NCBI RefSeq assembly: GCF_965641715.1
Contig: NZ_OZ282453.1
Length of the DNA: 64,000 nt
Reading direction: 5' to 3' (one strand)
Source: Escherichia coli
Lineage (GTDB): Bacteria; Pseudomonadota; Gammaproteobacteria; Enterobacterales; Enterobacteriaceae
The translations under genes and the position numbers were made by a program. The notes below the pieces were generated by a model that worked only from the letters and a program-made list of their open reading frames with translations, ran no database searches and was not told the DNA's origin. Shown here one piece after another: positions 63,236 through 64,000 of this stretch. The stretch's first letter is position 1; each line of letters begins with the position of its first letter.

Positions 63236-63395
63236 AATTGTTGTCTCTTTGATTATGTACAATCATATGTACAAAGAAAAATTCATGCCGCTGATTGTAC
63301 ATTTTGGAGGTATCAGAGCATAGCAGAACATGATCAGTAGGTGTATTTGTAGCCAAAGAACATTTGTACATGCAGCAATCTTTGCTCTATTGACA

Positions 63396-63439
63396 CTGTT
63401 TATTTATACAGTTAAAAATAATACTGTATGCAAACACAG
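63396..63439. promoter_or_regulatory. SOS promoter with two LexA boxes upstream of the dinI-like gene
   Basis: TTGACA (-35, 63390-63395) immediately followed by CTGTttatttatACAG (63396-63411) and CTGTatgcaaacACAG (63424-63439); both fit CTGT-N8-ACAG. Confidence 0.75.
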
Positions 63440-63454
63440 TGTAGAGGGAGTTTT

Positions 63455-63715
63455 ATGCGTATTGAGATCTGCATAGCCAAAGAGAAAATGACTAAAATGC
63501 CAAACGGTGCTGTGGATGCGTTAAAGGAAGAATTAACCCGACGCATCAGTAAGCGTTATGACGATATAGAGGTGATCGTAAAAGCCACCAGCAATGATGG
63601 CCTTTCTGTTACGCGCACCACTGATAAAGATTCAGCTAAAACTTTTGTTCAGGAAACTCTGAAAGATACCTGGGAGTCTGCTGACGAGTGGTTTGTATAC
63701 TCCAACCATAAATGA
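63455..63715 (+). CDS. DinI-family DNA-damage-inducible protein
   Basis: 86 aa [37 protein letters not shown]...[20 protein letters not shown]; N-terminal MRIE.IAK and C-terminal ETWESAD.WF match the DinI signature; RBS agagggag; LexA boxes upstream. Confidence 0.75.
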
Positions 63716-64000
63716 AGTTAATGACTATTGTGAGCGAGAAACGCGCTACTACTATATAGACAGACAAGATGCACTTACTGAATAAATACTCATAACGGAG
63801 AAACCAGCTGTATAGTGAACAATAGATTTCCAGTAGCATATTTTTACTTCACTTTTAGTTATTAATATGATAATCATAAACTACGGCTCTGCCTTAAATT
63901 TGTGAGGTTGTTTCGCCTCGAAGGAACTAATGTTAGGACATACGCCACCGTTCAGTCGATGGTAACGCTTCTTAACTAGTGGTCCGCTAAGTGATGCGCA

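Follow-up and report, generated by a model that had tools for sequence, protein, structure and literature searches.

A probable attR-type prophage junction in prfC of Escherichia coli with a dinI-like gene and the predicted start of a type XII retron

We analysed a 64,000-nt stretch of Escherichia coli DNA (contig NZ_OZ282453.1 of assembly GCF_965641715.1, hereafter the window), which ends shortly beyond the start of prfC, the gene for release factor 3. Its last 830 bases (63174-64000) are very probably the attR-type, tail-side junction of a long-tailed lambdoid prophage of the group that comprises cdtI (NC_009514 / AB285204) and the Stx1a/Stx2c phages. A megablast search with the 765 nt beyond the prfC start (63236-64000) showed that the first 461 nt (63236-63696) are 97.8% identical to cdtI, PhiR63_1 and 2H10, and 94.9% identical to dozens of Stx1a/Stx2c phages. 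Long-tailed Stx1a/Stx2c phages are known to sit at prfC (PMC10132054, PMC12831630), and the integrases of the cdt1 phage and of SXT form one cluster that targets this gene (PMC8138268). An initial annotation, made from the letters alone, had suspected that a prophage or island ends here, with a dinI homologue as cargo at its end, and had suggested a comparison with phage sequences; the suspicion is borne out by the matches above, by a shared att core and by the phage genes that follow in the genome EC416, which carries the same end. The same annotation was right that no yjjG follows the prfC start: MG1655 has yjjG on the prfC strand with 90 bp between its end and prfC, in agreement with the spacing given in the annotation, and in EC416 it is found at the far end of the prophage, not immediately beyond the dinI-like gene. 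It was mistaken in placing the dinI-like gene downstream of prfC, as the gene lies upstream, beyond the prfC start, and it missed both the insertion inside prfC, with the 5′ end rebuilt by the phage, and the start of a retron non-coding RNA (ncRNA).

The att core and the rebuilt prfC gene

A four-way alignment of att sites shows that a 14-bp core, GGGTGAGAAATAAT, is common to attB (MG1655), attL (EC416), attP (cdtI) and attR (the window), and the same 14 bp are annotated as a 'duplication due to insertion' in the Stx2c phage LC727876. In this alignment the window is chromosome to the left of the core and phage to the right of it; the attP of the free cdtI phage aligns with the window from the core rightwards and diverges to the left. 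Read on the prfC strand, the core is ATT ATT TCT CAC CC, which corresponds to codons 17-21 (Ile-Ile-Ser-His-Pro), where the GTPase P-loop begins. Taken together, these alignments show that the phage integrated at the 14-bp core, inside prfC codons 17-21.

The resulting prfC is a chimera of 528 codons, in which the core and codons 22-528 are chromosomal and codons 1-16 come from the phage. The 16 phage codons stand in for 17 native ones and change the native LSPYLQ to SLLAA, and the product of the lysogen gene has 528 aa compared to 529 aa (1590 nt) in MG1655. Three lysogens (EC416, SC516 and 4/1-1) have this 528-aa product under one accession, WP_000202564.1, with prfC annotated as an intact gene. 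These results show that the phage attP, as judged by its alignment, brings in a diverged copy of the first prfC codons together with the DNA upstream of them, and the reading frame is kept open at 528 aa because the phage arm supplies the 16 substitute codons. A large prophage survey counted prfC among the genes 'disrupted' by integration (PMC3603311); contrary to that listing, the prfC open reading frame (ORF) here is rebuilt, not disrupted. When the DNA upstream of the rebuilt gene was scanned for promoters, the best minus-strand match was TCTACA-16-TATTAT (63445-63418), which overlaps both of the LexA boxes described below, and weaker minus-strand matches were found at 63291-63262 and 63280-63252. 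The integrative conjugative element SXT reportedly brings a new promoter and new 5′ codons to prfC in a like manner, a result said to be that of Hochhut and Waldor from 1999.

The phage DNA next to prfC contains a repeat-rich att arm (Table 1) with four copies of ATGTACAA, two in direct orientation (63255-63262 and 63267-63274) and two inverted (63295-63302 and 63364-63371). Within 115 bp of this arm cluster 4 of the 14 TGTACA sites of the 64-kb window, and the int-proximal arm of attL/attP, as seen in the EC416 attL and the cdtI attP, holds another four. We infer that the ATGTACAA repeats are putative arm-type integrase sites.

The continuation of the element was followed in genomes that share the end of the window. 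At least 80% of the 765-nt end is found in 79 genomes; of the best 30 of these, EC416 and PEC41 match it at 100% identity and the remaining full-length ones at 99.6-99.7%. In EC416 the dinI-like gene is followed by a gene for a reverse transcriptase (RT) fused to a TIR domain (RT-TIR), a recombinase pseudogene, tail-fibre assembly and tail-fibre genes, lom and J, and the order continues with lambda-like tail and head genes, portal, terminase, lysis genes and Q. At the far end lie a CI-like LexA-family (S24) YmfK-like repressor, int, a displaced prfC 5′ stub, yjjG, rimI and holD. The EC416 prophage is ~47.7 kb long, which is the distance that now separates yjjG from prfC, and its integrase shares 98% identity with that of cdtI. 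SC516 and 4/1-1, in which the end is 99.7-100% identical, have the same order next to prfC (RT-TIR, tail-fibre genes, lom, J). Of 5426 complete E. coli genomes, 699 (~13%) cover the whole of a 301-nt probe that spans the junction, and nearly all of the remaining genomes matched only the prfC part of the probe.

Elements of the SXT/R391 type, which are integrative and conjugative, are the classic occupants of the prfC 5′ end, and the clustering of their integrase with that of the cdt1 phage (PMC8138268) would fit such an element in place of a phage. We regard this explanation as extremely unlikely, since the sequence that follows the core on the right has 95-98% identity to phage genomes, and the three genomes inspected carry lambda-like tail fibre, lom, J, tape-measure, capsid and terminase genes and no tra or set genes. 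Membership in the SXT/R391 family was rejected on the phage-matching DNA of the junction and the phage-gene neighbours in the relatives. The prophage and the SXT/R391 elements are alike in the target at the prfC 5′ end and in the integrase cluster; they differ in that SXT/R391 is conjugative and, in a comparison made through PMC8138268 and not through the SXT sequence, shares no DNA with the window beyond the target.

Table 1. Features at the right-hand end of the window
Feature	Position	Strand	Basis or remark
prfC (release factor 3), chimeric	61649..63235	-	ORF list and translation
att core GGGTGAGAAATAAT, crossover site	63174..63187	.	exact search; single occurrence in the window
phage-derived prfC 5′ codons	63188..63235	-	identical in cdtI attP and Stx2c phage; differs from MG1655
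att arm with four ATGTACAA copies	63255..63371	.	also upstream of prfC
predicted SOS-type promoter of the dinI-like gene	63390..63441	+	promoter scan, motif search
-35 TTGACA (perfect)	63390-63395	+	promoter scan
predicted LexA box 1 CACTGTTTATTTATACAGTT	63394-63413	+	CTGT-N8-ACAG at 63396-63411
-10-like AAAAAT	63414-63419	+	promoter scan
predicted LexA box 2 TACTGTATGCAAACACAGTG	63422-63441	+	CTGT-N8-ACAG at 63424-63439
DinI-like gene, 86 aa	63455..63715	+	Pfam PF06183, PHROG 189 and K-12 DinI match
cargo breakpoint and spacer	63697..63842	.	32% GC spacer
retron promoter-like site TTTACT-17-TATGAT	63843..63871	+	ends 10 nt before the ncRNA
type XII retron ncRNA (msr-msd), first 119 of ~140 nt	63882..64000	+	covariance model
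a1 arm CGGCTCTGCCT	63884-63894	+	a1/a2 inverted repeat
msr hairpin TGAGGT/GCCTCG	63903-63908, 63915-63920	+	covariation

The dinI-like gene and its SOS-type promoter

Opposite in orientation to prfC and preceded by the ribosome-binding site AGAGGGAG, an ORF encodes a protein of 86 aa that had been assigned to the DinI family from its translation. The assignment agrees with both profile searches: the protein matches the Pfam family DinI (PF06183) with E = 1.7e-19 over model positions 1-63 of 63, and PHROG 189, 'RecA filament binding protein DinI', with E = 1.1e-30. It is 47% identical over the full length to DinI of K-12 (b1061, PDB 1GHH), the two being of one fold family. The acidic C-terminal helix is kept and aligns with TWESADDWFV of K-12 DinI / 1GHH; according to literature cited in PMC3121763, this helix of DinI contacts RecA. 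The score against the NCBIfam DinI equivalog NF007893 was 72.8 bits, which falls short of orthology at a cutoff of 111, and because of this score we consider the gene a DinI-like paralogue and not the chromosomal orthologue. The name given to it by PGAP in EC416 is also DinI-like.

Upstream of this gene, the motif CTGT-N8-ACAG is found exactly twice in the 64-kb window, and the two occurrences lie 28 bp apart between the -35 element and the dinI start. The chance expectation is 0.53 per window, and two or more occurrences anywhere were obtained in 6 of 100 shuffled sequences. Compared to the 20-nt LexA consensus, the two boxes agree at 16/20 and 15/20 positions by manual count. With TTGACA paired with AAAAAT, box 1 fills the spacer and box 2 would therefore cover the likely transcription start. 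The TTGACA element and the two boxes had been noted in the initial annotation and stand, while its overlap of one box with the -10 region does not, box 1 lying in the spacer and box 2 just after the -10. The phage cdtI and the Stx2c phage retain the two boxes, with the half-sites unchanged and one substitution per N8 spacer. Taken together, the two predicted sites bracket the -10 of a TTGACA promoter, which is the operator arrangement of the LexA (SOS) regulon.

The comparison with known dinI loci shows both shared and distinct features. The chromosomal dinI of K-12 is likewise LexA-regulated, but it has one non-canonical box, CTGTATAAATAACCAG, compared to the two canonical boxes of the prophage gene. 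With cdtI the likeness over the 461 matching nucleotides extends to the core, the substitute prfC codons, the ATGTACAA repeats, the two-LexA-box promoter and dinI itself. The long-tailed Stx1a/Stx2c phages (E. coli CC119, O103:H2) share the prfC locus, the attR-dinI end and the annotated 14-bp duplication; they differ in carrying stx genes, other cargo after dinI and a 12-nt in-frame duplication in dinI. In the Stx2c phage LC727876 (L093 730-760) the latter is a tandem duplication, GTGGATGCGTTA, that is absent in the window and in cdtI.

A LexA box with a prophage dinI homologue right after it is also known from the operon of Gifsy-1/2/3, where the LexA-controlled homologues are induced by mitomycin C (PMC3121763). 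Exactly this layout would be expected if the dinI-like gene headed an antirepressor operon under LexA control, like that of Gifsy (dinI-gfoA/gftA-irsA), and served mainly in prophage induction, which in Gifsy needs the downstream antirepressor (PMC3121763). For the window this is very unlikely, because the search for an antirepressor after dinI gave no suitable ORF: the longest plus-strand ORF has 30 aa and overlaps the dinI stop. In addition, the DNA downstream of dinI is predicted to be a retron promoter and ncRNA, and the LexA-family (S24) YmfK-like repressor of the EC416 prophage would be cleaved directly. The Gifsy dinI is also placed differently, 1.3 kb downstream of replication genes and not at an att end, with an antirepressor following it; unlike Gifsy, the window has neither an antirepressor nor irsA after dinI.

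A predicted type XII retron at the end of the window

The homology to cdtI and the Stx phages stops at ~63696, in the last dinI codons, where the protein reads EWFV|YSNHK here and EWFVH there. The DNA after the dinI-like gene (63716-64000) had been described as AT-rich and non-coding, and it is AT-rich indeed (38.6% GC compared to 50.5% for the window) and holds no supported protein-coding ORF of at least 30 aa. The stretch is not empty: the AT-rich tail is not functionless, because it ends in the 5′ part of a retron ncRNA, with a promoter-like site before it. The TTTACT and TATGAT hexamers of this site are conserved upstream of the related retrons L005, L006 and L011.

The ncRNA was delimited in an alignment of 14 loci, namely EC416 and 13 further RT-TIR loci with 53-90% protein identity drawn from IMG/VR, Erwinia, Providencia, Citrobacter, Serratia and Yersinia. 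A conserved element of ~140 nt is found at the same place in all 14. Compensatory changes are seen at 5 of the 11 bp of its a1/a2 helix and at 3 of the 6 bp of its msr hairpin (8/17 pairs). In the paired columns 98.7% of cells can pair, compared to 33-46% with the partners slid, and 0 of 500 shuffles reached the observed covariation. The a2 arm, expected to read GGGCAGAGCCG, falls beyond position 64000, and the window ends inside msd. A perfect 10-nt inverted repeat, CGGCTCTGCC / GGCAGAGCCG, encloses 116 nt just upstream of the RT start. A search with the covariance model gave a single match in the window (103 bits, E = 1e-19, positions 1-119 of 140). A match as such is expected, since the model includes the EC416 copy; the new information is that the window has a single match and that it is truncated by the window end. 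When 63100-64000 was scanned against Rfam with E values up to 1, no match was obtained, and the retron RNA is therefore shown through the comparison with the other loci.

The protein partner was identified in the relatives. In EC416 the three ORFs downstream of the ncRNA are one RT-TIR gene with a frameshift in an A-run (L001 21290-21345), which could be a sequencing error or a real inactivation. The reconstructed protein matches the PADLOC model RT-TIR_XII with E = 8.6e-187 and the NCBIfam model Retron_TIR_antiphage with 668 bits (cutoff 600). Of 5426 genomes, 82 carry the retron module, RT-TIR included, with an identity of at least 99%, and among the 40 records listed RT-TIR is annotated as intact in 35. 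In strains YJ4 and M719 an ISSen4 element is inserted in the RT-TIR retron gene. As in the Retron-TIR / type XII systems (Gao et al. 2020; Mestre et al. 2020), an RT-TIR fusion is found in the relatives with the ncRNA immediately upstream. Taken together, a structured RNA with a1/a2 repeats lies directly upstream of the RT, as expected for a type XII retron. For type XII the structured RNA family was given as 'nd' by Mestre et al. 2020, and phage defence by Retron-TIR is attributed to Gao et al. 2020 in PMC7699616 and PMC7736814.

The neighbours of this retron family differ between genera. In Erwinia, Citrobacter, Serratia and Yersinia (L085, L088, L090, L091, L092) the family lies behind a P4-type primase (Toprim_3/D5_N/Pox_D5), and in Providencia (L086) it lies downstream of a P2 gpA-type Phage_GPA gene; here it is lambdoid prophage cargo beside dinI. 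The P4-primase and Phage_GPA neighbours correspond to satellite and P2 cargo positions. When the DinI-like protein was searched by tblastn against all fetched retron loci, it was found in the E. coli and phage loci only; since dinI is absent from the retron loci of other genera, its adjacency to the retron is a lineage-specific cargo swap and not a conserved module. The comparison of gene orders shows that the predicted retron fills the slot between dinI and the tail-fibre genes in which cdtI has cdtABC and type III effectors. In cdtI itself dinI is followed by cdtCBA, cif and an nleH-like effector, and in the lineage of the window by the type XII retron. Depending on the host, the att-proximal cargo slot of one phage lineage is occupied by a defence retron, by toxins (cdt) or by type III effectors.

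Extent of the element, possible regulation and value for annotation

The window stops short of any structural gene, and the end could therefore belong to a remnant only, that is, a decayed prophage or small island with the attR arm, dinI and perhaps the retron, the rest having been deleted. Damage to the retron in some lysogens (the EC416 frameshift and the ISSen4 insertion in two strains) would fit such decay, as would the recombinase pseudogene and the truncated tail-fibre assembly genes that adjoin the retron in relatives. However, in 3 of the 3 end-sharing genomes examined, lambda-like tail genes follow right after the retron, and EC416, the sole genome followed to the far end, has a full set of late genes. 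The 79 genomes with at least 80% of the 765-nt end and the 82 with the retron at 99% identity or more also suggest an element that has been spreading recently, and we hold a mere remnant to be quite improbable.

Several points weigh against the prophage junction described here and the roles given to its genes. The window ends at 64000, before the integrase, attL and RT-TIR gene of this genome. Between its chromosome and the nearest complete E. coli genomes with this end the identity is only ~98% (~98.2% for the best of them with a 25-kb query, and 97.8-98.4% for EC416 outside the prophage end), and the rest of the element is therefore deduced from relatives and could be degraded here. The scan upstream of the rebuilt prfC found no confident promoter, giving weak or distant candidates only. 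Finally, induction of Gifsy prophages was not measurably changed when their dinI homologue was deleted (PMC3121763), and because of this a modulatory role of the dinI-like gene may be subtle.

A mechanism can be proposed for the prophage and its cargo. A tyrosine integrase of the IntSXT cluster would have recombined attP with the 14-bp core, and LexA would repress the dinI-like gene in undamaged cells. Upon DNA damage the DinI-like protein would be made and would bind RecA filaments via its acidic C-terminal helix, and the RecA coprotease might be tuned in this way, affecting the SOS response and the cleavage of the CI-like (S24) repressor of the prophage. The retron may serve as an abortive-infection-type anti-phage defence of the lysogen.

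Two further links to the SOS response are conceivable. The candidate promoter TCTACA-16-TATTAT is directed toward prfC, and divergent SOS-controlled transcription is possible at this site; since the candidate overlaps both LexA boxes, release factor 3 could become LexA-repressed and damage-inducible. No intrinsic terminator was found after dinI by scanning and folding 63700-63885, and as a terminator between dinI and the retron is lacking, SOS read-through could raise the retron ncRNA and RT-TIR when resident prophages are induced. The joint reading, in which phage DNA would rewire SOS control onto both prfC and the retron and the ncRNA architecture would fill the 'nd' entry of type XII, appears unlikely as a whole.

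Every component described here is of a known kind and already annotated in RefSeq genomes; no new biology is needed, and the main value of the result is in annotation. A missing yjjG beside prfC marks an occupied phage attachment site, and this site is filled in ~13% of complete E. coli genomes. What is added for this window is the precise core, the exchange of the prfC N-terminus for a phage-derived one, an att arm rich in repeats and the identity of the last 119 nt as a truncated ncRNA of a predicted type XII retron.

Two further differences were observed in the chromosomal part of the window. The yjjW-yjjV intergenic region (57985-58371) contains a 101-bp tandem unit in 3.8 copies with 93% match and palindromic content similar to repetitive extragenic palindromes and bacterial interspersed mosaic elements (REP/BIME), and the array has more copies in the window than in EC416. 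In addition, the deoA-deoC intergenic region shows an indel, with ~80 nt in the window (54469-54550) compared to ~180 nt in EC416 (L001 11323-11505).

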